In this document: positions 36,345 to 61,030 of the stretch, one piece after another
How positions within the stretch are numbered: the stretch's first letter is position 1
How the letters are laid out: every line of letters begins with the position of its first letter
Origin: an uncultured Arenicella sp.
GTDB lineage: Bacteria; Pseudomonadota; Gammaproteobacteria; Arenicellales; Arenicellaceae
Direction of reading: 5' to 3'
Assembly: GCA_943846765.1 (NCBI GenBank)
Contig: OX044369.1
Coordinates: 1,832,715-1,896,714 of the forward strand
DNA: 64,000 nt
The notes under the pieces: model-generated
The model's database searches: none
The model's input: the letters and a program-made list of their open reading frames with translations, nothing else
Told to the model about the DNA's origin: nothing
Position numbers and translations under genes: made by a program

Positions 36345-36460
36345 AGCGCTGTAAAAATAAACAGTATACGTTTAAACCCCGAATTTGGGAATTTTAAGTG
36401 TTGCAGGCAAAGGTAAATGTAATGAACAATATGTTTTCTATTGCTGAAGGTCAGTGATGT

Positions 36461-36476
36461 AGGCCAAGGATGGCTT
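36461..36476 (+). promoter_or_regulatory. AGGCCA-AGGA-UGGCUU hairpin (CsrA/RsmA-type GGA-loop site) in the leader of locus A
   Basis: A 6-bp RNA stem (one G.U pair) presents AGGA as the loop. The core CCAAGGATGG is identical to two copies at 56.3-56.4 kb. Confidence 0.45.
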
Positions 36477-36609
36477 TGAAATTAAGTATTCAGTCAGTCA
36501 GCTTTTCTTAAGGGGTGGCAAGCATAGTCCATCACATTTCATCCAACACCATTCATCCAAAACCATTTCACGAGACGACCTAAACCTAACTACGTCTGAG
36601 AGGGATTTC

Positions 36610-37107
36610 ATGCGAGCCACACTTATCATTTTCTGGGCACTAATCATGAGTTCCAACGCTTTACCGCTCCGGGCAGAGTATTTTGTGCCAGCTAAGGCGC
36701 TTGCAAATCAAGCTGAGTATGAAGGCGAGCCTTGCCAAGAAGGTAGCCCATATTACTCCGCTCGTAATATTGGTAAGTGGGCTTACTCCGACCGCCACCA
36801 ATTGGACTTTATGGAACTCGTCAGCGATGTCCCACCTATCCTAAAAGATCTTTATGGTGAGTGTGTCGAACAGTTGGGTGATATTGAATCACTGATTGGA
36901 CTATTGAACGTATCGGTTTACGTCAATGTAGCGTCCTTAAAGGCAATTAAAGAATTAGTGATCCAAAAAATCGTTGAAGGTGTATGCAGCGAAATTGATG
37001 AGTTCGCCTTAGAGGTCTATGCCGAAATAGCAGATGCTCTCCCACTCGGAGAGTATGCCTATAACTTAGACGAACTGTTTGAGATTAAAGTTGAGGTTGG
37101 AAAATGA
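36610..37107 (+). CDS. Small exported protein, unknown function (locus A, gene 1)
   Basis: Signal peptide (IIFWALIMSSNALPLRA), 3 Cys, acidic. Its stop overlaps the next start (ATGA). Confidence 0.6.
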   Translation: MRATLIIFWALIMSSNALPLRAEYFVPAKALANQAEYEGEPCQEGSPYYSARNIGKWAYSDRHQLDFMELVSDVPPILKDLYGECVEQLGDIESLIGLLNVSVYVNVASLKAIKELVIQKIVEGVCSEIDEFALEVYAEIADALPLGEYAYNLDELFEIKVEVGK

Positions 37108-38222
37108 ACGTTTACCTCCCTGCACTACGTATTCGAGTTTGTTGTGGATTAAAGGTGCTGCTGCTATTGGTGATTATGGTAACGCCGACTCAACAAGCTC
37201 TTGCTCAGTGCGATGCGTGTGGTACGGCGTCAGTCGCGGCCGCAGCGGTTACGGTTACGGCGGCAATTGTACAGCTTGAATCCGTGCTCTACTACGAGCT
37301 CTATAATATAGGCAATGCAATAGCGTCATTGATTACGTCTAATGCTACTTTGCTTCAAAGCTTAAAAGTATCAAATGAGAAAGGCTTTGATTTGTTGGTA
37401 ACTGAGGGCCATGTCCGCTTAGCAAAAATGGGTAGTTTAGAAGTGAAACGAGATATCAATATTGCTTTTGGTGCTATCTCCTCCGACCATTGCTACGAAG
37501 TTGAAACTACCATGGGTGCTTCTGGATCTAATACCAATGAGTACCAGCAGGCCTTGTTTTCGGCAAAGTCATTTGGCGTAGAGATTAAAGCCAATACAAA
37601 ATCACCTGCGTTACGTCGTCGAATCATGGAGGAGTATTTTCCTGACGGTGTGGATTTTGGACGCTATTTTTCGTCTAATCAAAGCTTGAACGAAATGGAT
37701 ATGCTGCACGTACCAACGTTGACGCATGTGTTGAGCCAGAGTGTCGTGTTGCCGGTTGCGCCGGTCAAGGGGCTATCCAAGGAGAATGATCGCACCCGAT
37801 ATTATCGCGAACTGAAACGTGAGCGCGACACTCATGGTGCGATTGTGGAAGACGTGCTTGCACGTGCAATTTTGACCAATGCGCCGGTTGTAAATGCCGG
37901 TGAGTACGTACACAAAACGTTAGAAAACGCGGGAATCGATCCGAGTAACTTCGTTCAAGAAGAATTCACAAGCGAAACGGGATTGGTGAAAGCAATAGGC
38001 CATTCGTCATTCGGTAACGTCTCTGCCGTGCGAAACTCAGCGTTGAGTGGCGAAGAACTTATGCGAGTACTGATAAGCGAAGTTGGTAAGACCAACTTTG
38101 TGTTGTCAAAGCAGTATGAGGCGCTCAAAGATATCCGCATGCTACAGAGATTGAGCTTTGGCAAACAGGTTGAAAGTTTTTACGAAACGCGGTTAGAAAA
38201 GGCTTTCCAGCAGCTTAACTAA
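37104..38222 (+). CDS. Exported/periplasmic protein, unknown function (locus A, gene 2; positional IcmX/TraW analogue)
   Basis: An N-terminal hydrophobic signal/anchor (LKVLLLLVIMVTPTQQALA), Cys pairs, and translational coupling to gene 1. It lies directly upstream of the DotA-like gene. Confidence 0.55.
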   Translation: MNVYLPALRIRVCCGLKVLLLLVIMVTPTQQALAQCDACGTASVAAAAVTVTAAIVQLESVLYYELYNIGNAIASLITSNATLLQSLKVSNEKGFDLLVTEGHVRLAKMGSLEVKRDINIAFGAISSDHCYEVETTMGASGSNTNEYQQALFSAKSFGVEIKANTKSPALRRRIMEEYFPDGVDFGRYFSSNQSLNEMDMLHVPTLTHVLSQSVVLPVAPVKGLSKENDRTRYYRELKRERDTHGAIVEDVLARAILTNAPVVNAGEYVHKTLENAGIDPSNFVQEEFTSETGLVKAIGHSSFGNVSAVRNSALSGEELMRVLISEVGKTNFVLSKQYEALKDIRMLQRLSFGKQVESFYETRLEKAFQQLN

Positions 38223-38303
38223 TTACATCAATCCAGTGTGTTCATTCGCGTGCAAGAAATCAAAAAATAGCGAAATGACTAATCAGGTGAACAGGGGAAT
38301 TGC

Positions 38304-40388
38304 ATGGAAGCAATGTTGGCAGAACTATTCGGTGTGGGCTGGGTAAACCTGCTCAGTAATGGCGTAGACGATAATAGCTTTGGTTCAGTCCTTGGGCTGT
38401 TGTTTGGCTTGTTTAATGCGGCCGTTGCTCTCGTTACCGTAGGCGTTTTGTTTATGGTTGCAGTGACCGCCATTGCTGATACAGCACAGTCTGGCCAAGT
38501 AATGGGCCGCAATAGCTCGCTTTGGGTGCCTGTACGTGCGGTACTCGCGGCCACTCTTTTAGTGCCTGTGGTTAAGGGTTTCTCTCTCCTGCAGGTCCTT
38601 ATTCTTTCGTTGGTAGTCAACTTTAGTGTGACGCTAGCCAATACCATGGCAAGCGAAGCGGTCAGTTCGATCGTGCAAAATGGTATAGGGTTTAGTGATC
38701 CCGTTGCCGCACAGGTGCACGGTGTTGCAGAGCAAGTGTTGTTTAGTAGCGTGTGCCAGAACTATTACAATACGATCGAATACGACCCTGGGCAAGGTGC
38801 GGGTGGCCAGATTGTAGAAGCACAGTCAGTAGAAATAGCGAATGGTCTACGCAGAGTCCGTTGGTCATTTAACGGTGATGCATATTCGGGGCAAGGCGAA
38901 GCCGCCTGCGGTGCCTATTTTGTAACCTGTCCAGACCAAGACGCCGACACACTCACTATGTGCGATGAACAACTGGCGTCGTTAAAACAATTGAAATTGG
39001 AGCTAGACCCAATAGCGTTGAGCATAATTGCTAGTCAGTCAGCGAGCAGTATAGAGGTCGCTCGCGCTTCGCTGCGTTATCAAGAGCGGCAAAGCCAAGT
39101 GCTTAAGAAGCGTATGGCGAAAGTGGCGTTCGACCAGCAACACACGGCTGCGCGTAACGAGTTGATTGAGGCAATAGATTCCAAGGGTTTCGCTTTCTTG
39201 GGACAGTGGTACATGACGCTCGCGGCGCTTAATCATAAAAATCAAAGCTATGCGAAAGCGACGTTGGATAGCTTGCCAATTGATCAAAGTAAGGCAATAC
39301 AACACCGTATAGGGGTGTTCGCTTATTTGGAGCGAACACAGTCTATGTTGAGGGTAAAGTCTGAAGCGCTCTCATTGACCGCGGGTCGTCTCAGCGAAGA
39401 CGCTAAACGACAACGAGAGATTGGGGGTGTATTGGGAGGCGAAGGCACTTTGGGTAATTATCTGGCAAGTCATTCAGAGCTTAACTTGGTCGGAGAAGGA
39501 ACAGACGCATCAACGCTATTCAACTTTGATACAGACCCTCTAACGGGTTTGCAGCAGCTTGGTAGCACTATGGTAACGCTGACTACCGCGTTCTGGAGTG
39601 AGTCGCGCATGCAAGGGGCAAAGCTAAAACGCTCTGATCAGGATGAGCAAGTCACCCAGATGATTATGCGTGCATCCAACACGTTGAACTTCAAAAAAGA
39701 TCCGCAACAGAGTTACGAAGGCCAATTAGAAACGTTCGCCAGCTACATTATGATTATTTTGTTTCTCGCCGGTCTAACACTCATGTATTACTTGCCCGCT
39801 GTGCCTTTTATCCTCTGGACCATGGGTGTTGTTGGGTATTTAGTGTTGGTGTTGGAGTCTTTAATAGCCGCCCCGTTATGGGCTGCCTCGCACGCACTGC
39901 CTAAGGGGCAAGGGCTTAGCTCTGACGCTTCTCGGCATGGGTACATTTTGTTGTTGAACCTTGCTATTCGTCCGCCCTTGATGGTGCTTGGTTTGCTGGC
40001 CGGTGGTGCACTAATGGCATTGGCCGCCAAGTTCGCCGTCGCAACGTTTGATATTTACAGTGCATCACTGCTTGAGAGTAGGGTGGAGATCTCTTCGTTG
40101 CTCACGTTTGTTACATTGTTTGTCGTCGAAGTGATTATAGTGATTGGGCTCGTGCACAAATCACTTGCGCTTATTTATGAGGCTAGCGACAAAGCCGTTG
40201 AGTGGGTGACGGGTGCATCACGTACAGGGTCAGATGCAGGTGATGCACAGAGAGCGTCGGGTTCAGCCTCTGGAGCGCAACGATCAGGCGAAGCCGCATT
40301 GGGGAGAGCGAGTTACTCTGCACGAGCTGGCGGAGCAGTTGGTGCCGCAGGCGGTACAGACCCTGCAGCTAACCAGACTCTTCGATAG
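38304..40388 (+). CDS. DotA/TraY-family polytopic membrane protein (type IVB secretion-associated)
   Basis: The N-terminal block GLLFGLFNAAVALVTVGVLFMVAVTAIADTAQSGQVMGRNSSLWVPVRAVLAATLLVP matches the conserved DotA/TraY block as I recall it. The topology is 3-4 N-terminal TMs, a ~330-aa Cys-containing exported domain and 4-5 C-terminal TMs. The tail is Ala/Gly/Ser-rich. Confidence 0.6.
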   Translation: MEAMLAELFGVGWVNLLSNGVDDNSFGSVLGLLFGLFNAAVALVTVGVLFMVAVTAIADTAQSGQVMGRNSSLWVPVRAVLAATLLVPVVKGFSLLQVLILSLVVNFSVTLANTMASEAVSSIVQNGIGFSDPVAAQVHGVAEQVLFSSVCQNYYNTIEYDPGQGAGGQIVEAQSVEIANGLRRVRWSFNGDAYSGQGEAACGAYFVTCPDQDADTLTMCDEQLASLKQLKLELDPIALSIIASQSASSIEVARASLRYQERQSQVLKKRMAKVAFDQQHTAARNELIEAIDSKGFAFLGQWYMTLAALNHKNQSYAKATLDSLPIDQSKAIQHRIGVFAYLERTQSMLRVKSEALSLTAGRLSEDAKRQREIGGVLGGEGTLGNYLASHSELNLVGEGTDASTLFNFDTDPLTGLQQLGSTMVTLTTAFWSESRMQGAKLKRSDQDEQVTQMIMRASNTLNFKKDPQQSYEGQLETFASYIMIILFLAGLTLMYYLPAVPFILWTMGVVGYLVLVLESLIAAPLWAASHALPKGQGLSSDASRHGYILLLNLAIRPPLMVLGLLAGGALMALAAKFAVATFDIYSASLLESRVEISSLLTFVTLFVVEVIIVIGLVHKSLALIYEASDKAVEWVTGASRTGSDAGDAQRASGSASGAQRSGEAALGRASYSARAGGAVGAAGGTDPAANQTLR

Positions 40389-40413
40389 CGTTGTAAGGCC
40401 AACTATTGCCGAA

Positions 40414-40650
40414 TTAGGCCGCATGACGTGGCGAGAGAAAAGCCATCAAGTCGTCATAGCCGCCAATGTGTTGTTCTTCAAAAAAGATTTGCGGAACAGT
40501 AGTGCGACCACTTCGCGCAACCATTTCTTGGCGTTTCTCAAGATCGAACTCCACGTCGATTTCAGTGAACTCAATGTCACGATTTTTAAGCACTTTCTTA
40601 GCCGCGCGGCAATAAGGGCAATAGTCTTTAGTGTAGATAGTATTCTTCAT
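40414..40650 (-). CDS. grxC: Glutaredoxin 3
   Basis: YTKDYCPYCRAAK active site and RSGRTTVPQIFFEEQHIGGYDDL. 78 aa. Confidence 0.9.
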   Translation of the reverse strand: MKNTIYTKDYCPYCRAAKKVLKNRDIEFTEIDVEFDLEKRQEMVARSGRTTVPQIFFEEQHIGGYDDLMAFLSPRHAA

Positions 40651-40785
40651 GTTCAGGTCCTAGTTTTCGTTGGTAATACATTGCTCATACAGTGAGGAGT
40701 GCTGTTTATAAGCTTAGAATTGTCTCGTTGTCGCTGAGAGTCATCAGGCTTTCTGTCATACTAGTGATCTACCTAAGTTTGTACT

Positions 40786-41343
40786 ATGTTCGGAGCACCT
40801 ACCTCTATGACCGATCGTCTATTTCGTACCCCTTTAAAAACACTGACCGTATTGCTAGGTTTATTCGCGCTAGCGGCGTGCTCGTCTATCTCAGTAAAAC
40901 TGCCCAGCATTGGCGCGGATAAGCCTGTTGAAATTGCCGAAGACTTTTTTGAGGTCTATCGAGAGCGTCAAGATTTTGAGGCGTTAATGGGGTTTTACGC
41001 TGAGGAAGCGTAATTAGAAGATCTAATTTACGGACACTTTGCAGAAGATAAAGCGTCTATCAGAGCGTTCTTAAATTGGAACGATAACAAGTTTGAGCTT
41101 CCTAACGGCCCGCCAGCATTAGAAGTTACATCATTGACTGCGCAAAGCTCAAGAGTGGTTGCGCAAGGTTACTTCAAACCATTTAGTTATGACGGAAAGT
41201 CTTTTGGCCCGTGGCGCTTTGTGATTATTTTGGAGTTTAATGACGATGGAAAAATCGTACGCGAAATTGATTGGATTAACTACACGCCGCGCGAAAACTT
41301 TTTAGGTGGTAAAGACATAAATACGTTGGGTCGGGTTAAGTAA
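40786..41343 (+). pseudogene. SnoaL/NTF2-like lipoprotein gene interrupted by one in-frame TAA (41011..41013)
   Basis: ORFs 40786..41013 and 41134..41343 are in the same frame. Codons 41014..41133 contain no stop and read LEDLIYGHFAEDKASIRAFLNWNDNKFELPNGPPALEVTS. Lipobox LFALAAC. Confidence 0.7.
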
Positions 41344-41378
41344 GGCACTCCGTTTTCAGGTCAAACAAAAAGCAATAA

Positions 41379-41405
41379 AAAAGGCTAGCCCATTGCTAGC
41401 CTTTT
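41379..41405. terminator. Bidirectional rho-independent terminator
   Basis: AAAAGGCTAGC-CCATT-GCTAGCCTTTT lies between convergent genes. Confidence 0.8.
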
Positions 41406-41434
41406 AAATGGATAAAGAAGTATGCGGCATTACA

Positions 41435-41929
41435 CTAAGAAAGCAGCATGTGATTAAGGTAGATTGCCGCATCTCGCATATCGAAGAAAAACGAAAATAG
41501 AACAACAAACGTAATCCATCCAGCCCATACCGAGTAAGCACTTAGCGGGCCAAGAAAAGCATGTTCTTTAACTAGCTTATATAGCCCAGGCGACCAAAAC
41601 ACGATATGCACTAGAGCAACTAATCCTGAAAGCGGCAGTAAGTCGAACACCGAGAAGGCGATTTTGCTGAATAGTATTCCTGCTACAAATCCGCCGATTA
41701 ACCAACGTGCTGGAATGTGGTTTTTTAGAAATAAAATGCCGGCTAGAAAGCTCATTGCCATTATGCCAATCCAAACTTGTACCCACTGGGGTGTAGCTTG
41801 CCAGCCTTGTTCGTCAAACACTTGCAAGGCGCCGTGACCGGGAGTGTAAAGCTCGCCCTCCTGTGCGACGCTAACACCGCATAGGCTTAATAAAACAGTT
41901 AGACATAACAGCTTGATAGCAAAGGTCAT
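41435..41929 (-). CDS. Integral membrane protein, unknown function
   Basis: A signal peptide plus about 4 TM helices. 164 aa. Confidence 0.55.
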   Translation of the reverse strand: MTFAIKLLCLTVLLSLCGVSVAQEGELYTPGHGALQVFDEQGWQATPQWVQVWIGIMAMSFLAGILFLKNHIPARWLIGGFVAGILFSKIAFSVFDLLPLSGLVALVHIVFWSPGLYKLVKEHAFLGPLSAYSVWAGWITFVVLFSFFFDMRDAAIYLNHMLLS

Positions 41930-41992
41930 AAATAATCCTCAATAGTGGATTGCAACTTGATGTCTAATCACTTTAGCATGAACGACAAACAC

Positions 41993-42026
41993 AAAAAAAG
42001 CCGCAGACCCTAAGGTGCACGGCTTT
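41993..42026 (-). terminator. Probable rho-independent terminator (minus strand)
   Basis: On the minus strand: AAAGCCG...CGGC stem followed by TTTTTTT, 70 nt after the stop of 42096..42392. Confidence 0.5.
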
Positions 42027-42095
42027 AGTTGACGCTGTAAGCATTCCAATACACTAGGCTGCAAATCCAGCGTAATGGGCCTGTGTCAGAATGAT

Positions 42096-42392: not shown

Positions 42393-42487
42393 GGTAAATC
42401 CTCTAAAATAGTCTGTTTTAACTTAACTTATGAGGTCTTTTCTTTGATTTCCAAGAGCAATACCAGCAAGGAATTGTGAGGTATAAT

Positions 42488-42506: not shown

Positions 42507-42545
42507 GAATTCCATTGCGACTTTGACGCTTAAAATTACTCAGAT

Positions 42546-43858: not shown

Positions 43859-45154
43859 TTGTACCGAATCCTAACTATGTTGAGAGCTCTTCTTTTATCA
43901 CTATCCGTGCTTGCTGGGCTGGTGCTTGCTTCACTTTGGCCCAATAGCCTTGTAGCTGAAACCTCGGCGAATCGCTTCAGCGAGTACTACGACCAGATCT
44001 ATCAGGTTCGCGTGTTCAGTCCAGAGGCAGGCAGCAAATCGTCGATCGGTTCAGGTTTTCAGGTTACGGCCGATGGTCTCATCGCAACCAACTACCACGT
44101 CGTCTCTGACTTTGTACAAAGACCCGAAAAACATCAAGTTGAATACCGTTCCCACACTGGTGAAACGGGTTCGTTGGAGTTGTTGGACTTTGATGTCGTG
44201 AATGATCTTGCGCTACTGCGTATTGATCAGCCAGCAGACCGGTTTTTCAGCTTGTCTGGTGATACACGCCAAGAACCCTCTAGCGCACAAAGTAAAGGTG
44301 GATTGGTCTACGCTTTAGGCAATCCTAGAGATTACGGCGTGACTTTAGTCCAGGGTTTTAATAATGGTTTGGTCGCCCACAGCTATAACGATCAACTGTT
44401 ATTCTCCGGCAGCTTAAACCCTGGGATGAGCGGTGGGCCAACGCTCAACGCTAACGCCGAAGTTGTGGGTGTTAATGTAGCAACGGCAGGCAGTCAATTG
44501 AGCTTTTTGATTCCGGCCGACAAGCTTATAAACTTAATCAGCGTGGGTCGAGCGCTCGAACAATCTGATTATCAAGACGAAATTGCGACTCAGATTAAGC
44601 AATGGCAAAGACCTCGGCTCCAATCTCTCATTGATGAACCATGGCCTACAGAAACGTTTGCTGATCGAGAGCTTTTTGGAGAAATCAGAAAGGACTTTCA
44701 ATGCTGGGGTGATACGAATAGCGATAACGTGAATCGGTCGGTTGCTTGGACAAATAGAAATTGCCAAACTGCCAACCAGGTTTTTCTTTCTGGCCGCCTT
44801 AATATAGGTCAATTGTTGTTTTCGTTTAGCGAGCAAGAAAGTATCAAGCTCAATAGATTTCAGTTTGCACAAACCTTGAGTCCAGATATGGGCGCAGACA
44901 ATCAGTCAAACTTTGAAAATTCCACCAGTTTTAAATGTAAGACTGGATTTTTAGACACGCAGCAAAAAGGCCAATATCGCCGCATTAATAGCTGTATTAG
45001 AGCGCATAAGAAACTTCATGGTCTATTCGACAGTCTCTTGTTGGTGGAAGTGAACGAAGGCTTAACCAGCTTTCTGGCACACCTCTCCATAGCTGGTGCT
45101 GAGCCAGACCAGATTAAGGCGTTGAATACTAAGTTTACGGAGCGTGTGCAATGA
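43859..45154 (+). CDS. Exported trypsin-like (S1) serine protease with an unknown Cys-containing C-terminal domain
   Basis: Catalytic triad contexts TNYHVV, NDLALL and NPGMSGGP, plus a signal peptide. ATG 43877 is a likely start. Confidence 0.75.
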   Translation: MYRILTMLRALLLSLSVLAGLVLASLWPNSLVAETSANRFSEYYDQIYQVRVFSPEAGSKSSIGSGFQVTADGLIATNYHVVSDFVQRPEKHQVEYRSHTGETGSLELLDFDVVNDLALLRIDQPADRFFSLSGDTRQEPSSAQSKGGLVYALGNPRDYGVTLVQGFNNGLVAHSYNDQLLFSGSLNPGMSGGPTLNANAEVVGVNVATAGSQLSFLIPADKLINLISVGRALEQSDYQDEIATQIKQWQRPRLQSLIDEPWPTETFADRELFGEIRKDFQCWGDTNSDNVNRSVAWTNRNCQTANQVFLSGRLNIGQLLFSFSEQESIKLNRFQFAQTLSPDMGADNQSNFENSTSFKCKTGFLDTQQKGQYRRINSCIRAHKKLHGLFDSLLLVEVNEGLTSFLAHLSIAGAEPDQIKALNTKFTERVQ

Positions 45155-46122
45155 ACATCGCAATCGTAATTGCTCACAAAGGCGGTCGTCGTATAGAGCG
45201 CTTGACGGTGGGTGAAAGTCCTTTACGGATCGGTCGGGGCTGGGGCAGCGATATCCTGTTGGACGATAAGTTTGTGAATGAAAATCATATTGAGTTATCG
45301 GTAGATGATGGTGAGCTATACGTTCGTGATCTTTCAACCAGAAATGGAACGCTCTTAGATGGAAAACGGATTGATTCTTCACCGCAAAAAGTGCGCTTTG
45401 GTCAAGTGCTTGGCATAGGCGATTCTCAAGTACAGATCCAAAACGTGCAGGCCTCTGTGGCGCCCGCTAGCTTCCGCTCAGCATGGTTTCTCTTGATGGA
45501 GCGGTTTGGTTCGACCAAATCCATATTGTCATTGACCGCTGTAGCTCTTTTCCTCCAAGCCCTTGTTGCATGGATGGGAAGTTCACAGGAGTATGGCTTG
45601 GGTGATGCGCTGGTTGGCGTAGGCACGCTTTTGGTTGCTATTACTATTGCAGCCTTAACATTAGGCTTAGTCAGTAAACTGCTGCGAAACGAGGCGAGCC
45701 TGAAATCACATTGGCTCGTCATCGTTATTGCGTTAATCGCCAACGTCTTGATCGATTTTCTATTGCAAATAGTACGTTTCAATTTGCAGATGCCTGTATT
45801 GAGCGACTCCATTGCTATGCTAGCAATGGGTGCTATAGCCTCTTTGTTTATAGTTGGCTTTTTAAGTTATGCCACTTACTTAAGTCCGTCAAAACGTTGG
45901 CTTTGGTCTGTATCTGTTGTGGGCCTATTCGTTATTTTTAGTTACTCAGAAGACTGGTTGAAGGAGGACCATCAGCGCTGGACTAGTTACAGTTCTTCTG
46001 AGGGCTTAACTCTGCCGCCCGCGCTTCTTTTTCGCTCTACGACCAGTGTTACTGACTACTTTGATGCAAGCGATGAGTTGTTCGGTTTCACGCCAGGTGA
46101 ACTGGCCGATAGTGATAATTAG
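45151..46122 (+). CDS. FHA-domain protein with a C-terminal multi-TM region
   Basis: The FHA core LRIGRGWGSDILLDDKFVNENHIELSVDDGELYVRDLSTRNGTLLDGKRI, then about 5 TM helices. The start overlaps the protease stop (ATGA). Confidence 0.75.
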   Translation: MNIAIVIAHKGGRRIERLTVGESPLRIGRGWGSDILLDDKFVNENHIELSVDDGELYVRDLSTRNGTLLDGKRIDSSPQKVRFGQVLGIGDSQVQIQNVQASVAPASFRSAWFLLMERFGSTKSILSLTAVALFLQALVAWMGSSQEYGLGDALVGVGTLLVAITIAALTLGLVSKLLRNEASLKSHWLVIVIALIANVLIDFLLQIVRFNLQMPVLSDSIAMLAMGAIASLFIVGFLSYATYLSPSKRWLWSVSVVGLFVIFSYSEDWLKEDHQRWTSYSSSEGLTLPPALLFRSTTSVTDYFDASDELFGFTPGELADSDN

Positions 46123-46150
46123 ACAGTAGCCTAACGTTATAACTAGGTCC

Positions 46151-47023
46151 GTGACTAGGCTCTCAATGAGCCTTCACAGAATAAAATTAATGAAATCTCG
46201 CCCAAATAAACCGCCCAAGCACATTAAAGCACCAGGCCGTATTGCGCTAATCAAAGAAGCAAGAACGCTGGTTGATATTGGCAGCGTGGCTGTGTCTTTT
46301 GCTCAACGTGGGCTATTAGGAAAAGCGGCGAGCCAGCGTGGCAAAAACTCTCCACCGATCATTATGTTTCCCGGTTTCGCATCTGACGATCGATATCTTT
46401 GGCCACTGCGACGTTATTTAATGAGTCTAGGCTATCAAGCCGAAGGTTGGGGGCTTGGAACAAACTTGGCAGGCGCAAACCTTCCCCATACGCTCGATGA
46501 CCTTCATCCCCGTTGGGATATTGAGCATACTAGCAAGGAGTTGCGCGAGGACTATCGCGGCGAAGGCGGTGTTCCGTATCTTTGTGACAAAGCAATAGAG
46601 CGAGTACAACAACGTATTGCTGAGTTAGACAGCCCGGTGATATTGCTAGGCTGGAGCTTGGAGGGGTATGTTGCCCGAGAAGTTGCACGTGAGCTAGACA
46701 AGGATGTTAAACAAGTCATTACGTTTGGTTCGCCAGTGATTGGTGGCCCTAAGTATACGTCAGCGGCCCCCATTTTTAAGGCGCGCGGATTTAACCTCGA
46801 CTGGATTGAGAGCGAAATCGAACGCCGCAATACTAAGCCCATCCAGCAGCCGATAACGGCAATTTATAGTAAGTCAGACGGAATAGTCGGATGGCCAGCA
46901 TCGATAGACCATAACAGCCCCAATGTTGAACACATCGAAGTGGATGCAGCGCATTTAGGGATGGGCTTTAACCGTACGGTATGGAAGTTAGTACTCGAAG
47001 CGCTAGACAAGCACGCTGACTAG
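46151..47023 (+). CDS. Alpha/beta-hydrolase (lipase/esterase-like)
   Basis: IIMFPGF oxyanion region and an ILLGWSLEGYVA nucleophile-elbow-like motif (GWSLE instead of GxSxG). The start is uncertain (GTG 46151 or ATG 46166). Confidence 0.55.
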   Translation: MTRLSMSLHRIKLMKSRPNKPPKHIKAPGRIALIKEARTLVDIGSVAVSFAQRGLLGKAASQRGKNSPPIIMFPGFASDDRYLWPLRRYLMSLGYQAEGWGLGTNLAGANLPHTLDDLHPRWDIEHTSKELREDYRGEGGVPYLCDKAIERVQQRIAELDSPVILLGWSLEGYVAREVARELDKDVKQVITFGSPVIGGPKYTSAAPIFKARGFNLDWIESEIERRNTKPIQQPITAIYSKSDGIVGWPASIDHNSPNVEHIEVDAAHLGMGFNRTVWKLVLEALDKHAD

Positions 47024-54375: not shown

Positions 54376-54405
54376 TTATTACATCAACTGCTTGCGACTT
54401 TAAAA

Positions 54406-55386
54406 CTAGCTAACTAGCCAAATAACACCGGATATTACACCCCAGACTAGAAGCCCCAACAGGACAAACAGTGTAGTGTTTACCGTGTACTTAAGCGTCT
54501 TATAGGCGACGAGGTTTGTTTCTTTGAGATTTTTAGAACGCTCTAGAGCTGGAACCAGTCCTGCGAAAATGCGATTAAATAGCCCACGTTTATCAGCATC
54601 AGTATTGGGTACGATAAATGCCTTCATTAGAATTTTGTAAGGCCAATTCAGAATACTGCCCAACCATGACATTGGACGCTCTATGTCGCACATCAAGATT
54701 AAACGCGGCTTGTGCGCATCATTATGCGCAAAATGTAGGAACGTTACGTCAAATAATAATGGCTCGCCGTCGCGCCATGAATAAGGCGTGTCGTCTATGC
54801 TGATGTAGCATTTGTCATCGTTAGGGGTATCTAGACCAAGGTGGTACCGCAGGCTGCACGCTACCGGATCTAAATGACGCGTGAGTTGACCACCTGGGGG
54901 TAACACCGAAAACATAGCGCCGTTGACTGAAGGGATTTTGCTTAACAATTCGATTGTTTTTGGGCAAGTGCTTTTAGCTGATTCGTGAGTGTAGCCGTAC
55001 CAGTTAAGGTAAAACTTGGTCCACCCATACTTATAAAAGGTACGAAATCCTACGTCATAATAAGAGGCCGACTTAGGATCGCCAATCGAATCAAAGCCAC
55101 CTTCGGCCATTAACTCTAATGCTTCCTCACGAATCATTTCCCAGTTGTCTTGAAGTTCCTGTAGCTCAGGAAACTCGGTCATATCCATGATCGCAGGCTT
55201 CGCCTTAGATTTGGTAAAGAGATATAACAGGCAATTGAAGGGAGTGAATATTGGCCAACCCTTGCGTAAATATTCTCCAAAGCTGGCATAACGGGCCTGA
55301 CCTCGGTAGGCATAGACATAAGTCAGAGAGGCCACGCAGAAGATCGCGATGAAAAGCATGATGAGAGAAGTCATTTTATTCGACAA
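54406..55386 (-). CDS. Aspartyl/asparaginyl beta-hydroxylase family protein (LpxO-like), membrane anchored
   Basis: N- and C-terminal TM helices and a cupin-like core with LTRHLDP / HFAHND His motifs. Confidence 0.55.
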   Translation of the reverse strand: MSNKMTSLIMLFIAIFCVASLTYVYAYRGQARYASFGEYLRKGWPIFTPFNCLLYLFTKSKAKPAIMDMTEFPELQELQDNWEMIREEALELMAEGGFDSIGDPKSASYYDVGFRTFYKYGWTKFYLNWYGYTHESAKSTCPKTIELLSKIPSVNGAMFSVLPPGGQLTRHLDPVACSLRYHLGLDTPNDDKCYISIDDTPYSWRDGEPLLFDVTFLHFAHNDAHKPRLILMCDIERPMSWLGSILNWPYKILMKAFIVPNTDADKRGLFNRIFAGLVPALERSKNLKETNLVAYKTLKYTVNTTLFVLLGLLVWGVISGVIWLVS

Positions 55387-55505
55387 GTAGGCTGTGCATT
55401 TGACGCGAAATATAGCTTAAACTGGTCCAGTTCCGAAGTAATTGACGGCTAAAACTGTCAGATTCTTATTGATCACCTTTTTATCAACACATTTTGAGAC
55501 TTATT

Positions 55506-56162
55506 ATGTCGCAGAAAAAATTGAATTTTTCCGAGTTAGACAGCACTCAGATGTTGCAAAACTCTAGCGCGTTTTACCATCACATGAAGACGCGTCGAAC
55601 TGTGCGCAATTTTTCAGATCGCGCTGTAGACCCAAAAATCTTGCGTAATGCTATTCGTACAGCAGGTACCGCACCGAGTGGCGCTAATAAGCAGCCCTGG
55701 CATTTCGTTTTGATATCCGATCAAAAGGTAAAGCATGAAATACGCGTAGCGGCAGAGAAAGAAGAACATGAGTTTTATACAAGCCGCGCGCCGAAGGCAT
55801 GGCTTGATGATCTAGAGGTTTTTGACACGGATCAGCACAAACCTTTTCTGGAAACAGCCCCGCATTTAGTCGCTATATTTCTTGAGCGTAATACAGTTGA
55901 TGCTGAGGGAATCAAGCACAAAAACTACTACATGCCCGAGTCCGTGGGTATTGCGACTGGGTTCTTGTTGGCCGCGTTGCATAACGCAGGTTTAGTGACG
56001 CTTACGCATACTCCGAGCCCAATGAAATTTTTGAATCAAATATTAGAAAGGCCAACTAACGAAAAGCCTTACATGCTGATCGTTGTTGGTTATCCAGCTG
56101 ATGGGGCAACGGTACCGGATATTAGCCGTAAAGAGTACGACGAGATAGCAACTGAATTCTAG
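55506..56162 (+). CDS. Nitroreductase-superfamily flavoprotein, iodotyrosine-deiodinase (IYD)-like
   Basis: RRTVRNF, IRTAGTAPSGANKQPWHFV, EKEEHEFY lid-like segment, LLAALHNAGLVTLTHTP, ATVPDISRK. From memory it is collinear with animal IYD. Alternative TTG start at 55494. Confidence 0.65.
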   Translation: MSQKKLNFSELDSTQMLQNSSAFYHHMKTRRTVRNFSDRAVDPKILRNAIRTAGTAPSGANKQPWHFVLISDQKVKHEIRVAAEKEEHEFYTSRAPKAWLDDLEVFDTDQHKPFLETAPHLVAIFLERNTVDAEGIKHKNYYMPESVGIATGFLLAALHNAGLVTLTHTPSPMKFLNQILERPTNEKPYMLIVVGYPADGATVPDISRKEYDEIATEF

Positions 56163-56249
56163 AGGTTGTTGTCTACGGTCTATTTTTTATTAAGGCCAGT
56201 GTTAGTACTAAAGTGTAATTGAAGCTTAGGTGCCAACCCTCTACATTAC

Positions 56250-56568
56250 TCCTAAGCGCACAAGAGCTTTGAAGAGATAGCAAGGACGTTGTTGTCTTTA
56301 TTGTTCAAAGCGTGGTTTTGTGAACACTGCAGCGCCAAGGATGGCGCTAAGCAAAGGACTAAAGGATTAGACCTTAAAGTGTTATGGGTTAGGCAGCAAG
56401 GGCTTAAACAAAGCTAGGTCGGGGAGAGCGCCAAGGATGGTGTTAGGTAAGCAAAGAGTGTTAAAGGATTAACTTTCACTTATCTACCCCGATTGTTTTG
56501 ATCATTAAAGTACTAATGCTCCTAACGTTATTTAGGTACTGCTATTTACGACAATAAAAAGGATTTTT
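56250..56568 (+). promoter_or_regulatory. AAGGA-rich leader RNA of locus B (CsrA/RsmA-type multi-site leader, or a Csr/Rsm-like sRNA)
   Basis: Seven AAGGA motifs fall in ~280 nt (56282, 56337, 56354, 56362, 56433, 56464, 56558). Two sit in GGA-loop hairpins and the last is the SD of the first gene. A possible sigma70 promoter is TTGAAG-17-TACATT at 56219..56247. There is no strong terminator before 56569. Confidence 0.4.
56331..56471 (+). repeat. Two ~40-45-nt direct repeats, each starting with an AGCGCCA-AGGA-UGG(C/U)G(C/U)U hairpin and ending in AAAGGATTA
   Basis: Copy 1 is 56331..56369 and copy 2 is 56427..56471. In copy 2 the stem is kept by two G.U pairs, which works only as plus-strand RNA. 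Confidence 0.7.
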
Positions 56569-57021
56569 ATGTTTATTACGATGATCGGTAAATCATTCTA
56601 TTCGCAAGATAAGTCTCCGGTGGAGGATATTATCTATTCATTACGTTTTGAAATTGATCATGCATCCGTTGAGTCGGGCACCTATGTCTACGGACCTGAA
56701 AATAGTTCAGCGCGCCGACTTGGCAGCAGCGAAGTCGGTTTGACTGCTCTGTATGACCTGCGCGTTCGCATAAAGACACGCAGTGGAGACTACAAAGCTG
56801 TTTGTGTCGATGTCAATTCGGCGATGCAAAAACTACGAAGTACGCCTAACGTCGACGGGTTACTGCTTACGGGAGAGAAGGGCAGTAGCGCGATAGTGGT
56901 TAAGGTTAATTCAAAATCTGTTGAGATCAACTATCACGTTTATAGAGACTACACAGGCCCACAAAACCAGTTTTACTTTAAAACAAAGGTCTTTGCTTTG
57001 TGTGAGTACGCGTTTGCTTAA
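56569..57021 (+). CDS. Small cytoplasmic protein, unknown function (locus B, gene 1)
   Basis: 150 aa, no signal peptide or TM, and an AAAGGA SD 7 nt upstream. Confidence 0.55.
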   Translation: MFITMIGKSFYSQDKSPVEDIIYSLRFEIDHASVESGTYVYGPENSSARRLGSSEVGLTALYDLRVRIKTRSGDYKAVCVDVNSAMQKLRSTPNVDGLLLTGEKGSSAIVVKVNSKSVEINYHVYRDYTGPQNQFYFKTKVFALCEYAFA

Positions 57022-57098
57022 GGTCTCTGTTTTCCAAACTTTCTAATATTTAAAATTTTTAGAAGAGGACATTAAAGGAAGAGTAAACCAAATTACGC

Positions 57099-57130
57099 GG
57101 TCAAGGATGATTGCGATACATCAAGGAGGA
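57099..57130 (+). promoter_or_regulatory. Paired GGA sites before the DUF2235 gene: hairpin GGUCA-AGGA-UGAUU plus SD-overlapping CAAGGAGGA
   Basis: The two sites are ~18 nt apart, and the second ends 8 nt before ATG 57139. This is the classic two-site geometry for CsrA-type translational repression. Confidence 0.35.
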
Positions 57131-57138
57131 TTAGCGCA

Positions 57139-58179
57139 ATGGTGGCTAGAAGATATGTTGGGGCCTTAATTCGATTAGCACAATCAGGAGAGGGGCGGGA
57201 CGCGACTCCTCAAGAACTGGCGCAATACGGGGTTATTGCAGAGCAAATCACAGAGCTTCCCAGCGTTGGTACCTATAACTTAAACGACGACGCTCATCGC
57301 TTAATGCTTATTTCATTTGATGGAACGAGCGGAGATCGTGAAGGCCGAGGCGACACACATACTAACCCTGACATTCTAGAACAACTTGTTCAAGAAAATG
57401 AAAGGGTCAGTGCAATGTACGTTCATGGTGTAGGGACGCGTGCCGCTACGCCAATTCACGGCCTTTTCGAAATGGCAACTGGTTCTGGAACAGAGCAGCG
57501 TGCCGAAATGGCTTATCGAGAGTTTGTGACCGAGGTACAGCAATGGCACGACCAAGACCCTAATATAGAGCCCCATGTTGTTACCACCGGTTTTAGTAGA
57601 GGTGTTGGTTCGCAGCGGCATTTTGCTAATTTGGTCGAGGATCATGGAGTGGCGAATAAAGAATGTACGGGGTTTCTAATAGAGCCGGGACAGGTAAAGC
57701 AGGACCTCATGCTAATGTACGACGGCGTGGTGACGGGGCAAGAGCGAGTGCTTGATCTACCGATTCCACAGAGTGTTGTCTCTAGTGTTCACCTGGTGGC
57801 TGCCCACGAAAAGCGTGCCTTATTTGATTCGGCAAGCATCGTTGATCCACTGTACCCAGATCAAGTCGGTCGGCTTGAGGTTGAAGTGCCTGGCCATCAC
57901 GTAGACTCTGGAGGTGACTACGATTACGGAGGTTTGTCGGCTCGCACCCTAGAACTTGGTGTGTTGGCTTTGCAAAAAAATCATGTCCCGATAGTTGATT
58001 TGCCTGAGCAGTATCAATCCCAAGATGGTCGAGTTGACTTAACGGCAAATAATTCAATTTTGCCTTTCAACTGGGAAAGTTCGAAACGAGAAGTGGATCA
58101 CTACAGCGATGAAACGCTCGGCCCCAAACTAAATGATCACGACGCTCTGGAGCAAGGATGTTCATTAAACCTCAACTAG
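57139..58179 (+). CDS. DUF2235 (Tle1-like) alpha/beta-hydrolase, candidate phospholipase effector
   Basis: The ordered DUF2235 blocks are ISFDGT, YVHGVGT, TGFSRGVG (nucleophile Ser codon 57595..57597), MYDGVVTG, VAAHEKRALFD and VPGHHVDSGGDY. There is no signal peptide. Confidence 0.65.
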   Translation: MVARRYVGALIRLAQSGEGRDATPQELAQYGVIAEQITELPSVGTYNLNDDAHRLMLISFDGTSGDREGRGDTHTNPDILEQLVQENERVSAMYVHGVGTRAATPIHGLFEMATGSGTEQRAEMAYREFVTEVQQWHDQDPNIEPHVVTTGFSRGVGSQRHFANLVEDHGVANKECTGFLIEPGQVKQDLMLMYDGVVTGQERVLDLPIPQSVVSSVHLVAAHEKRALFDSASIVDPLYPDQVGRLEVEVPGHHVDSGGDYDYGGLSARTLELGVLALQKNHVPIVDLPEQYQSQDGRVDLTANNSILPFNWESSKREVDHYSDETLGPKLNDHDALEQGCSLNLN

Positions 58180-59060
58180 GCGCAAATTTCGCGCAGACAG
58201 CACAACCAAGATTATTCGATTCTCTCGCTATTAGGCGCGTTGCCAGTATTCTAATTCTCCTCAGTGTTACCCCCACTTGTCTTGCCTTTGACATAAATAG
58301 TTATGTCCCTAGTGGTGAGCTCGTGGGGTCTTTTTTGGGGCCGAATGGGTGGCGCGGACACATTACCCAGAATGATAAAGGAATCAAAGTTATTTTGTGG
58401 GAAGCGCCAGACGGGCTGGTAGTGATAGGCAAATTGATTGACAAGCGCGGTCGCGACCTAAATAGGCTAGCTCAGGTTAAGCACGACACGAATGCCATCG
58501 TAATTTCGGTTCTTTCTAAAATGAGCGTGTCTAGTGACCTTATCGATGTGGGTGACGATCAGGCTCACAATATTGAGGCCGTAGCGTATGAGGAATTGCT
58601 AAAGCTAGACGAAAAGAATTATACAAGCATCGCACCTTCTCATCTTAATAATGCCTTAAATGATGGTGGAGATATAAAAGAAATGTATGCGTTTTATGAC
58701 TACCAATGTCCATACTGCGCATCCGCTTTAAGACATATTTCTTCTTCAGGCCTCGCCGCAAAGGTGCACTGGTTGCCTGTTGCAATTTTGGGTAATGGTA
58801 GCGCGAACTACGGGGCAGGCGTATTGGATGGCAGCTTGGACATACAGCATATGGGGGGCGCCAGCAGAGTAGGCTACCCCAAGCCAAAAAAGCAAAGCAT
58901 GGATGCTGTAGCGCACAATACCGCGTTACTTAAAGCAATACAGGGACGAGCGTCCACGCCGTTATTTTTATATCGTACGCCAAGCGGAAAAGTCCTCTCT
59001 TTGGCAGGCTTTAGCGAAGCGGCGCCGAGTGCACTTAACGACATGCTTAACACTGATTAG
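58158..59060 (+). CDS. Periplasmic thiol:disulfide interchange protein, DsbG/DsbC (IncI TrbB)-like
   Basis: Signal peptide, an N-terminal dimerisation-like domain, and a thioredoxin fold with the CPYC active site (58707..58718). It overlaps the preceding gene by 22 nt. Confidence 0.65.
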   Translation: MFIKPQLGANFAQTAQPRLFDSLAIRRVASILILLSVTPTCLAFDINSYVPSGELVGSFLGPNGWRGHITQNDKGIKVILWEAPDGLVVIGKLIDKRGRDLNRLAQVKHDTNAIVISVLSKMSVSSDLIDVGDDQAHNIEAVAYEELLKLDEKNYTSIAPSHLNNALNDGGDIKEMYAFYDYQCPYCASALRHISSSGLAAKVHWLPVAILGNGSANYGAGVLDGSLDIQHMGGASRVGYPKPKKQSMDAVAHNTALLKAIQGRASTPLFLYRTPSGKVLSLAGFSEAAPSALNDMLNTD

Positions 59061-59062
59061 CT

Positions 59063-61030
59063 GTGGCGCGACCCAATACTGGCACGCACTACAGCAAACG
59101 CGGTTTAGACAGCGCCGATTTTGCTGACGGACGCACTCTACTCAGAGATACTCGCACCAGAAGTGAGCAACTAAGTTCACTCTTTTCCAGCGGCCCCATA
59201 GCGAGCGGAGTGTTGGCCGTAACGAGTTTGGCTCTTTTATGGTTACCCATAGTCTGGGAGCTGCTTTTTGTGATTCAGCTACTATATAGCGTATGGGTGT
59301 TCCGGCGTTTAGTCGGGCCTAGTAGTCTTCCGAATGTTTTACCCAGGACAGCCAAGCATAAAGTAGACCCACACAACCCATTGCCGGGCGGAGCTCAACT
59401 CGGGCCACCCAGTGGGGATATGTATTTAGGGGTTGAGCGGCAAACAAAAAAGCAAGTTTGGTTCAAGTTTAACGATTGGCTCCGTCACGGGCTAATAACC
59501 GGTACCACTGGGTCGGGTAAAACTGAGTTGCTCATTGCTATCGCCTATAACTTTTTGTGTGCTGGTGGATCGGGATTAATGTTTGCAGACCCAAAAGGAG
59601 ATCCTAAGGCTGCACTTAAGCTTGCTTGGATAGCAAAGCGGTTTGGTCGTGAAGACGACCTGCTTATCTGTAATTACATCTCACCAGAGAATCTCGACGT
59701 CGGTACTCTAGATTACCAAGCGACTAATACCAGTAACCCAACACAAACTGGCAACGCAAAAGAGGTAGCGAATATGCTCACTTCGTTGTTGCCAAAAAAC
59801 GAGGGTGGCAACAATGCTGTTTTCGCTGACAACGCGATCACTCTGGCACAAGTGCTCAGCCGATGCTTGGTTGACCTTCGTGATAAAGATGAGCTGACGC
59901 TTAGTTGGGGGGTGTTTCGAGACCATCTGAACTTACCTGCTTGCATAGAACTTGCGCGCCACACATCTTTAGACATCGAAGCACGCAGAGAGCTGGAACT
60001 TTTTGTTTATGGAATTGCTGGCGTGTCACGCACTAAAGGAGCGCATGATCAGGTGCAAACTGCTTATGATCAGTTCGGGTATTTTGCCAGTTATTGCCAA
60101 CGAGGCTTGGCTACTCTTACGGGTTCGTTCGGCTATATCTATGATTGCAAATATGGCGATTTCTCTTATGACGACGTGGTGAATCGACAACGAATTCTCT
60201 TATCTGTATTACCGAGTTTGCAAAGCACACAAGATGAGATGAGTTTGCTTGGACGAATCGATCTATTTGGAAAAAAACAAGCGCTTGCCGAGGGTTTAGC
60301 TAAGAGGCTAGAAGGCAGTGGCAATCAAGTGCAGCAGAATCAATCTGAGGTTGACGGCGTGCCATCGCTGAACATCATGGATGAGTATAAGTACATCTCA
60401 GTGCCGGGGATGAGCGTTGCTGCAACGCAGGGCAGGAGCCTTGGTTGGGCATCGTTGGTCGGTGTTCAATCTTACGCTGGCTTATGTGTTGATGGCGAAG
60501 CCGAAGCTGATGAATGGTTAGAGAACACGTCGACGAAGCTAATTGGGTCTGCCCAAGGAGACTCGACCTTTGACAAAATTAATTCGATAGTGGGTCAGGA
60601 ATTCGTCGCTCGTTCAGAAGGCCGAACTCAAACAGGTGCTTGGTTCGCGGGAACGGCGGACAAGATGAGCTTGAGTTACGAGAAGCAAGATATTTTGGAT
60701 ATCCGCGATATACGCGCTCAAATCGAAGGCGAATTTACGTTGATCGTACGAGACCGAGAAATTCGAATGCATACACTGTACGTCGACACGACAAGTAAAG
60801 AACAGTCGCATCAGAGTTTATTGATGAACAGTTTTATTGATCTGCCACCACCCAACCCACTAACAGTCGAGGCCGCGGTACTCTATTCGAAACTATTTGA
60901 TGGAACCTTGCTCGAGGGCTTATCAGCATCTACCGATGCAAAGCATCTGCAGTTTGTATCTCGAAGACTCAAAGCCGCGAAGGGTCAAGCCGGTACCATT
61001 TATGCACTATTGTCGCGACCTGGCCAGTAA
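59063..61030 (+). CDS. Type IVB coupling-protein-like ATPase (DotL/IcmO, IncI TrbC family)
   Basis: LLRDTRT N-terminus, two TM helices, Walker A GTTGSGKT (59501..59524), GREDDLL, NRQRILLSVLPSLQSTQDE, Walker B-like LNIMDEYKY, TQGRSLGW. All are collinear with Legionella DotL as I recall it. The GTG start is 2 nt after the previous stop. Confidence 0.7.
   Translation: MARPNTGTHYSKRGLDSADFADGRTLLRDTRTRSEQLSSLFSSGPIASGVLAVTSLALLWLPIVWELLFVIQLLYSVWVFRRLVGPSSLPNVLPRTAKHKVDPHNPLPGGAQLGPPSGDMYLGVERQTKKQVWFKFNDWLRHGLITGTTGSGKTELLIAIAYNFLCAGGSGLMFADPKGDPKAALKLAWIAKRFGREDDLLICNYISPENLDVGTLDYQATNTSNPTQTGNAKEVANMLTSLLPKNEGGNNAVFADNAITLAQVLSRCLVDLRDKDELTLSWGVFRDHLNLPACIELARHTSLDIEARRELELFVYGIAGVSRTKGAHDQVQTAYDQFGYFASYCQRGLATLTGSFGYIYDCKYGDFSYDDVVNRQRILLSVLPSLQSTQDEMSLLGRIDLFGKKQALAEGLAKRLEGSGNQVQQNQSEVDGVPSLNIMDEYKYISVPGMSVAATQGRSLGWASLVGVQSYAGLCVDGEAEADEWLENTSTKLIGSAQGDSTFDKINSIVGQEFVARSEGRTQTGAWFAGTADKMSLSYEKQDILDIRDIRAQIEGEFTLIVRDREIRMHTLYVDTTSKEQSHQSLLMNSFIDLPPPNPLTVEAAVLYSKLFDGTLLEGLSASTDAKHLQFVSRRLKAAKGQAGTIYALLSRPGQ

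Follow-up and report, generated by a model that had tools for sequence, protein, structure and literature searches.

Chromosomal type IVB secretion systems (T4BSSs) are a textbook feature of the intracellular Legionellales, and the Dot/Icm system of these bacteria is under CsrA control. The Legionella proteins DotA and IcmX assemble into a pentameric channel rich in disulfides; DotG surrounds it as a cage and is required for its assembly. The IncI1 plasmids R64 and ColIb-P9 carry transfer systems of the mating-pair formation class I (MPF_I), made up of traH-traY plus trbA-trbC. The gene order annotated on MPF_I plasmids is traM-N-O-P-Q-(DUF6750)-traU-traW-traX-traY-(excA)-trbA-trbB-trbC. Across these type IV secretion systems (T4SSs), VirB5 corresponds to TraW and IcmX, VirB6 to TraY and DotA, and VirD4 to TrbC and DotL (PMC12624023). 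T4BSSs have been reported to be mostly absent from free-living Gammaproteobacteria (PMC8896642). Here, two loci (A and B) are described from a 64-kb stretch of DNA (64,000 nucleotides of contig OX044369.1; the whole stretch is called the window below) of an uncultured Arenicella sp., a marine gammaproteobacterium found in North Sea metagenomes. With a probability of about 0.8, loci A and B belong to a set of three or more chromosomal loci which jointly specify a single complete, very divergent T4BSS of the MPF_I type. Homologies, synteny, conservation and co-occurrence of the loci are the observations behind this reading.

Genes of loci A and B

The window is chromosomal backbone (mrcA, pilMNOPQ, aroK, gltBD, hemE, and sugar and transport genes) with an even GC content of about 47%. 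Locus A consists of three co-directional genes, A1 to A3, and locus B of four, B1 to B4. Both loci lie on the same strand, separated by 16 kb of ordinary genes. The original prediction, made from the window sequence alone, had placed seven open reading frames (ORFs) here, and the ORF check found all seven in place and intact:

36610..37107, + strand: A1, 165 aa, exported, with a signal peptide and three invariant cysteines; no recognisable family
37104..38222, + strand: A2, 372 aa, exported, with a signal peptide followed by a conserved C-D-x-C
38304..40388, + strand: A3, 694 aa, polytopic inner-membrane protein of the DotA/TraY family (VirB6 position)
56569..57021, + strand: B1, 150 aa, cytoplasmic, with neither a signal peptide nor a transmembrane (TM) segment; no recognisable family
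57139..58179, + strand: B2, 346 aa, cytoplasmic alpha/beta hydrolase of the DUF2235/Tle1 family with intact Ser-Asp-His motifs
58158..59060, + strand: B3, 300 aa, probable periplasmic thioredoxin-fold DsbG/TrbB-like protein with a signal peptide and CPYC
59063..61030, + strand: B4, 655 aa, type IV coupling protein (T4CP) of the TrbC/IcmO/DotL class

The original prediction had called A3 DotA/TraY-like, B4 DotL/IcmO/TrbC-like and B2 DUF2235/Tle1-like, and profile searches bear out all three assignments. A3 matches TIGR04346 (DotA_TraY) over its full length with 309 bits (cut-off 100), and the DotA chain of PDB 9ngy with an E-value of 2.5e-24. Its score against the DotA equivalog, 167 bits, is below the cut-off of 500. 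TM helices at the N-terminus, an extended hydrophilic domain (residues 117-474) with four invariant cysteines, and a hydrophobic bundle at the C-terminus correspond to the layout described for DotA. Only 7 close homologues of A3 were found. The model built from 7 sequences reached a pLDDT of 47.8, and Foldseek gave no match to it in the PDB below an E-value of 0.9. A profile search of genome contigs with the DotA alignment returned only 4 loci, all in uncultured Gammaproteobacteria.

B4 matches the IncI TrbC model NF041447 with 236 bits (E 1e-69), below the equivalog cut-off of 800, while its matches to TrwB_AAD_bind (PF10412) and TraG-D_C (PF12696) are both above the cut-offs. Two TM helices lie at the N-terminus, and the Walker A motif reads GTTGSGKT. 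Among the closest named relatives of B4 beyond its clade is Legionella IcmO/DotL (about 28% identity). The alignment of B4 to an 835-aa plasmid homologue stops near residue 650, leaving it without a C-terminal tail of about 185 aa. Adaptors of the IcmS, IcmW and LvgA families are absent among the window proteins according to Pfam and NCBIfam.

B2 scores 45.9 bits against PF09994 (Tle1-like; cut-off 27). Its GFSRG motif, the Asp of YDGVV and the His of GxHxDxGG align with the Tle1 domain of PDB 9j3f. With 56-63% identity in relatives, B2 is among the best-conserved genes of the operon. A metagenome search with the B2 alignment returned the population of the window only. All B2 orthologues carry a conserved G-C-S-L near the C-terminus (window positions 58120-58179). 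It is not a CaaX box, as the cysteine is 5-9 residues from the end, and it could be a lipidation or recognition signal. B2 was also considered as a replacement of TrbA/DotM; this was rejected, with zero TM segments and no DotM_C match. The preceding gene product, B1, is fast-evolving and lineage-specific (31-33% identity to the orthologue on contig L007) and finds nothing in profile searches of the PDB. It may be a chaperone, an adaptor or an immunity partner of B2.

The description of B3 as DsbG/TrbB-like stands in part. The signal peptide and CPYC are present and are kept in three lineages, but the DsbG match is weak (44.6 bits; cut-off 124), and the DSBA Pfam match is below its cut-off too. 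The position of B3 agrees with that of trbB beside trbC in IncI-type plasmids.

A2 is probably a very divergent TraW/IcmX (VirB5-position) partner of DotA, because of its position, its export, a weak match to the C-terminus of TraW, and weak TraW matches among its relatives. Its gene is just upstream of the DotA/TraY gene; MPF_I plasmids have traW slightly further upstream. The hhalign comparison with the TraW C-terminus gave an E-value of 0.0045 at a probability of only 7.8%, and 3 of 10 members of the A2 family match NCBIfam conj_TraW with E-values no better than 1e-3. Among 1.84 billion proteins, no more than 14 represent the A2 family. Profile searches of the PDB with A2 returned nothing or spurious HIV Rev matches, tblastn against 72,556 plasmids gave zero matches, and the single-sequence AlphaFold model is unusable (mean pLDDT 33.8). 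Family libraries gave no match for A1, A2 or B1. Orthologues of A1 are 48-68% identical on contigs L001 and L002 and 39% identical on the plasmid-like scaffold described below, always immediately upstream of the A2 gene.

The core locus and a plasmid-like relative

Scans of the window with Pfam, NCBIfam and other tools found zero T4SS core gene, relaxase, integrase, insertion sequence (IS) or tRNA in its 64 kb, as had been noted originally. The core genes were found by looking outside the window, beginning from a relative. The next-closest T4CP (P0013, 51% identity) and DotA (P0128, 42%) share one 63.5-kb scaffold, KRUG19-1 scaffold_322 (L004/L017), from North Sea metagenomes. It carries two Rep3 genes, ParA, a primase and an unannotated 2293-aa ORF. 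Scaffold_322 is the closest relative of each module: identities are 39% for A1, 45% for A2, 42% for DotA and 51% for the T4CP, and, for core proteins, 57% for DotB, 54% for TraI and 52% for IcmT. Besides TraI/DotC, TraJ/DotB and IcmT, it holds a paralogue of A2. Its composition is host-like (GC 45.8%, tetranucleotide r 0.87), and the scaffold has the appearance of a conjugative plasmid belonging to the same host lineage. Pfam gave no match for the 2293-aa protein and the small ORFs of the scaffold, and no relaxase was identified among them. At least eight iteron-like copies of CTGTGACCTTT are present beside a Rep3 gene (L017, 5005-5600). B1 and B2 are absent from the 42 kb of the scaffold that was seen, and from the IncI, integrative and conjugative element (ICE) and plasmid comparators examined. 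Catalogued plasmids are far more distant (TraY 22-29%, T4CP 27-32%, A2 none).

With DotB of this scaffold as the query, the search recovered the plasmid and, in addition, a compact group of sequences with 52-57% identity. This is the same distance as that of the window genes to the plasmid. The protein P0135 of this group is encoded at a third locus, a divergent cluster found on contigs of 54-85 kb with genes for TraU/DotO, DotG, DotH, DotI, DotD, DotC/TraI, DotB and IcmT. One arm of this core locus contains a TraU/DotO-like ATPase, a 239-aa protein (weak DotN match), a DUF6750 protein, a 181-aa protein, a 418-aa protein (weak TraP match), DotG/TraO, DotH and DotI. The other arm is composed of DotD, TraI/DotC, DotB and IcmT. 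Pfam detects DotH, DotI, DotD, TraI, T2SSE/DotB and IcmT on L022-L026 and L027 (PF16932, PF16816 and PF12293 among the models), and NCBIfam detects DotG/IcmE (78.8 bits), DotD (32.7 bits) and DotI. For the TraU-like ATPase (1064 aa, L022-L025), an alignment of 632 aa with plasmid TraU shows 27% identity (E 9e-59). The DUF6750 protein, a weak Pfam match, may be TraR-like and occupy the VirB2 position. The flank of the core locus (Na/Ala symporter, CN hydrolase, PhzF and M28 peptidase) is a chromosomal context. Relaxase, oriT, integrase and replication genes were not seen in the window or in the core-locus flanks that were read.

Some variation is seen around the core locus. L023, a contig of 84.5 kb, is 98.97% identical to L022, and 23 gap openings split its TraU, 418-aa and Na/Ala symporter genes; these look like long-read indel errors and not real pseudogenes. 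Two paralogous genes for methyltransferase-like proteins of about 290 aa (L022, 12439-13329 and 17117-17986) flank the housekeeping genes after IcmT, and L027 and L031 likewise have an orthologue after IcmT. In a fourth lineage (L033), a DotH fragment lies directly upstream of TraI-DotB-IcmT on the same strand, and the M28 peptidase flank is kept. The core locus was therefore rearranged again in that lineage.

Several observations link the core locus to loci A and B. The core cluster ends at TraU, where the gene set of the window starts in the canonical order. The metagenome-assembled genome (MAG) GCA_964351295.1 contains a core locus (L027) and a locus-A orthologue (L013), whose DotA is 72% identical to that of the window. 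Samples ERZ23498364 and ERZ27279858 each have a locus-B orthologue (L010/L011) and a core orthologue (L031/L032), the latter with the same M28/DUF1993 flank. L023 would come from the source sample of the window itself. The tetranucleotide correlation between the window and L022, 0.94, is the highest among all loci compared. Divergence is congruent: DotA at 72% against DotB at 74% in one sister lineage, and T4CP at 57% against DotB at 57% in another. Identities of the three loci to one and the same plasmid clade lie within 39-57%. The original prediction had described loci A and B as core-less and outside any recognisable T4SS, and had itself named a complete dot/icm or IncI tra cluster elsewhere in the genome as the finding that would make them dispersed parts of a T4BSS. 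Such a cluster exists, in the same MAG and the same samples as their orthologues, and by that reasoning the two loci count as scattered components of such a system. The origin from an IncI/Dot-Icm (MPF_I) gene set and its splitting by 16 kb, both suggested earlier, are supported. A is followed by B on one strand in the IncI order; thus they can be regarded as the traW-traY and trbB-trbC tail, broken by 16 kb and without trbA. The three genes after traY on a Stutzerimonas plasmid bear no resemblance to B3 or B4.

Loci A and B are found at the same chromosomal sites in sister species, at 51-72% amino acid identity with the exception of B1. Locus-A orthologues are present in three MAG lineages (DotA 65-72%), and throughout, the VRR-NUC/exonuclease gene is on one side and SnoaL/DUF4389 on the other. 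Locus-B orthologues in two further lineages lie between the same nitroreductase and M20 peptidase genes (T4CP 57-59%). Because the contigs overlap in gene content, the 16-kb spacer is ancestral to the clade. The ORFs are intact in 3-5 lineages. The proportion of nonsynonymous differences (pN) is 0.18-0.37 (B1 0.44), with synonymous differences saturated at a pS near 0.8; except for B1, these pN values agree with those of the housekeeping genes alongside. The comparison of relatives thus shows conserved sites and no sign of the gene decay that relics would display. Judged from these sequences, loci A and B are old, fixed and under selection, and they are not relics.

The genes of the spacer are ordinary, as originally stated, and include those for galactonate dehydratase, a protease/FHA/hydrolase trio, a MATE pump, DUF885, DUF2855, a TetR regulator, an LpxO-like hydroxylase and a nitroreductase. 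The trio (43859-47023), whose gene order is conserved in L001, encodes a trypsin-like serine protease, an FHA-domain protein and a PGAP1/thioesterase-like alpha/beta hydrolase; the FHA-domain protein is also matched by a model of the cytoplasmic domain of YscD of type III secretion systems. A glutaredoxin gene (40414-40650, minus strand) directly follows A3, and the 160-aa plus-strand ORF overlapping it (40213-40695) is probably not a gene. At 17162-17641 is a gene for a 159-aa dual-specificity (eukaryote-like) protein phosphatase, which also has weak matches to polymorphic-toxin DSP-PTPase models. It adjoins a GDSL lipase gene (17714-18352, minus strand).

Leader sequences, the proposed machine and alternatives

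The window has exactly three copies of the sequence GCCAAGGATGG; each is on the + strand and precedes one of the two operons, which agrees with the rare leader motif described originally. With up to 1 mismatch, there are 4 matches in the window against 0.79 expected. Every copy forms a hairpin with an AGGA loop. The features of the leaders are:

36461..36476, + strand: locus-A leader hairpin aggccaAGGAtggctt, with one of the three exact copies of GCCAAGGATGG
56203..56224, + strand: conserved box AGTACTAAAGTGTAATTGAAG in the locus-B leader, a pattern unique in the window
56331..56348, + strand: locus-B leader hairpin agcgccaAGGAtggcgct, with a 7-bp stem and an AGGA loop
56427..56444, + strand: second locus-B leader hairpin agcgccaAGGAtggtgtt
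56460-56473: further AGGA hairpin in the locus-B leader
56554-56570: further AGGA hairpin, over the ribosome-binding site of B1

The consensus of CsrA/RsmA sites from in vitro selection (SELEX) is RUACARGGAUGU. With GGA in the loops and one hairpin over a ribosome-binding site, the leader hairpins look like predicted CsrA/RsmA binding sites. The locus-B leaders of relatives contain several A(A)GGA(U) hairpins with differing sequences. Rfam yielded zero families at the gathering score, and an RsmY-like match over 56384-56476 is weak (12.5 bits, E 1.3). The leaders may thus be under translational control of the CsrA type, and the shared AGGA-loop hairpins make the common regulation of both loci, proposed originally, plausible. 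L007, with two copies, and L010 have boxes related to AGTACTAAAGTGTAATTGAAG in their locus-B leaders, and the box may be a promoter or an operator. For a candidate shared operator resembling TTTAAGTGTTG, the window gave 33 matches where 26.5 are expected, which is no enrichment. In two lineages, a TTTTAAG-NN-TTGC box is common to locus A and to the core locus on its dotD side; it is statistically unsupported.

A LexA/SOS-type box, CTGTAAAAATAAACAG, is seen at 36349-36364, with similar boxes at the same place in L001 and L002. It sits between locus A and a minus-strand gene (34161-36344) for a VRR-NUC/FAN1-HTH/DnaQ-like exonuclease. It probably controls this nuclease gene, and not the T4BSS genes.

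If the three loci work as one machine, their contributions can be proposed as follows. Locus A would supply the central stalk or protochannel, composed of DotA/TraY, the TraW/IcmX-like A2 and the small cysteine-rich exported A1. Locus B would supply the substrate-recruiting coupling ATPase B4, whose operon also contains the lineage-specific pair B1 and B2. The stalk and recruitment roles are assigned because of the published equivalences and the DotA-IcmX channel of Legionella. B3, as a CPYC isomerase, could keep the cysteine-rich periplasmic A1, A2 and DotA correctly disulfide-bonded. The third locus would give the envelope-spanning core and the other ATPases, including TraU/DotO, TraO/DotG, TraN/DotH, TraM/DotI, DotD, TraI/DotC, TraJ/DotB, TraK/IcmT and the DUF6750 protein. 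All three loci probably descend from an IncI-like conjugative plasmid lineage, whose living representative would be the Rep3/ParA scaffold_322. The machine appears to have been domesticated and to be no longer a mobile element.

DUF2235 domains are present among the predicted effectors (X-Tfe) of bacteria-killing T4SSs (PMC6536674). Since B2 is cytoplasmic and well conserved, with intact catalytic motifs, and DUF2235 is known among predicted T4SS effectors, a role as a substrate is plausible. B2 would then be recruited by the coupling protein, and B1 would be its chaperone or antidote. It can be speculated further that an IncI-like machine was domesticated independently of Legionellales into a CsrA-controlled T4BSS which injects the B2 lipase into bacteria or bloom algae on contact. 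This extended scenario is doubtful. If true, it would be, to our knowledge, the first antagonistic, lipase-delivering T4BSS.

Several points weigh against a complete machine of this kind. The core locus and the window are never on one contig, and their link consists of binning, sample co-occurrence, composition and inferred sample identity. No match to DotM_C/TrbA is seen in the window or the loci seen, while the comparators L020 and L030 have DotM/TrbA; the gene could be at another site of the genome. Together with the lost tail of B4, the lack of DotM/TrbA in these loci indicates that substrate recruitment has changed. The scores behind the assignment of A2 to TraW/IcmX are weak. The exact sequence of the AGGA hairpin is not kept in relatives, and the hairpin was not found in the regulatory region of the core locus. 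From the loci seen, the substrate may be DNA or protein.

This last point leads to the strongest of the alternatives, in which the three loci are a still-conjugative machine that transfers the chromosome or co-resident mobilisable elements, B1 and B2 being accessory genes with no part in secretion. The closest relatives belong to plasmid transfer systems, the scores favour IncI TrbC with no match to a Dot/Icm equivalog, and the core locus retains a DUF6750 protein, taken as TraR-like, as MPF_I plasmids do. However, relaxase, oriT, entry-exclusion and replication genes are seen neither in nor beside any of the loci, each of the three loci is fixed and keeps its chromosomal site from species to species, and the C-terminal tail of the plasmid homologue is missing from the coupling protein. 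Ongoing conjugation is considered rather unlikely. Far less probable is the stand-alone module originally imagined, in which the lipase-like protein leaves the cell by way of DotA, an exported partner and a coupling ATPase, with no T4SS core involved. The 64 kb of the window without any core gene, and two intact and conserved loci, fit such a module. The same lineage, however, has a core locus that complements the gene set of the window exactly, the Legionella channel cannot assemble without DotG, and there would be no route through the outer membrane without DotC, DotD, DotH and DotG.

One MAG, GCA_964351295.1, holds both a chromosomal-type DotA gene (L013, 72% identical to that of the window) and a plasmid-type one (L015, 39%), so that a plasmid and the chromosomal system may coexist in one host. 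From this and the host-like composition of scaffold_322, it could be supposed that the chromosomal genes act in trans, as spare or alternative stalk and coupling parts for the T4SS of a co-resident plasmid. But A1, A2, DotA and a coupling protein are all encoded by the plasmid itself, the chromosome does not lack a core, and mixed complexes are hardly expected at 39-57% identity. This supposition is slightly less credible even than a module without a core. Least probable of all is that the loci are decaying, functionless relics of an integrated IncI-like plasmid or ICE. The fragmented ancestral operon order, the missing DotM/TrbA and the very divergent sequences would suit relics, but seven ORFs are intact here and in 3-5 sister lineages, pN is far under the saturated pS and similar to that of neighbouring housekeeping genes, and catalytic and nucleotide-binding motifs are kept.

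Comparison with known systems

The system of three loci is a new, very divergent and chromosomally fixed member of the type IVB/MPF_I group. In an uncultured bacterium of North Sea metagenomes, a divergent T4BSS has been kept intact through several speciation events. The chromosomal system evidently arose from the sister conjugative plasmid beside which it sits, and it offers a natural case for the study of a conjugation machine taken over by a chromosome. A Tle1-like hydrolase encoded with a coupling ATPase is a candidate for a non-canonical substrate, and the significance would be stronger if delivery of a protein, especially a lipase, is true. The case also calls for caution, as the absence of the rest of a multi-locus machine is not provable from a 64-kb window.

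Compared with the IncI1/MPF_I systems, TraY/DotA, TrbC, a putative TrbB-like isomerase and probably TraW are shared, and the third locus adds TraU, TraO, TraN, TraM, TraI, TraJ and TraK. The relative order of the genes is shared too. In contrast to these systems, the genes here are chromosomal, at three or more sites between housekeeping genes, and their proteins are only 22-32% identical to any catalogued plasmid protein. Relaxase, ExcA and TrbA/DotM are not seen in the loci. The place of trbA is occupied by B1 and the DUF2235 hydrolase B2, and the coupling protein is shorter. Scaffold_322 differs from the chromosomal system in carrying all modules on one replicon with iterons. Unlike the window loci, it has an extra A2 paralogue, a 439-aa gene and a tailed T4CP, and none of B1, B2 and B3 is found in its 42 kb seen.

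B2 shares with Tle1 of type VI secretion systems (T6SSs) and with the DUF2235 X-Tfe effectors of bacteria-killing type IVA systems the catalytic domain with GFSRG, Asp and His. It is likewise cytoplasmic and encoded beside a secretion ATPase. Unlike Tle1, it is not near T6SS genes: VgrG, Hcp and PAAR are absent within the 64-kb window. It is a minimal 346-aa enzyme without the XVIPCD signal domain, and its neighbour B1 is cytoplasmic, in contrast to the periplasmic lipoprotein (Tli) that gives immunity to Tle1.

The Dot/Icm system of Legionellales differs in several respects. The nearest relatives of the genes described here are plasmid genes, B4 is about 28% identical to IcmO, and A3 is under the DotA equivalog cut-off. 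IcmS, IcmW, LvgA and DotM are not seen, DotN has only a weak match, and the DotL tail is absent, whereas a DUF6750 protein, taken as TraR-like, is kept. The host looks like a free-living heterotroph. As in Legionellales, the system is chromosomal, multi-locus and vertically inherited, and its leaders appear to be CsrA-controlled. It also shares with Dot/Icm the pair of DotA and a probable IcmX-like partner, a coupling protein of the DotL class, and homologues of DotB, DotC, DotD, DotG, DotH, DotI, DotO and IcmT.

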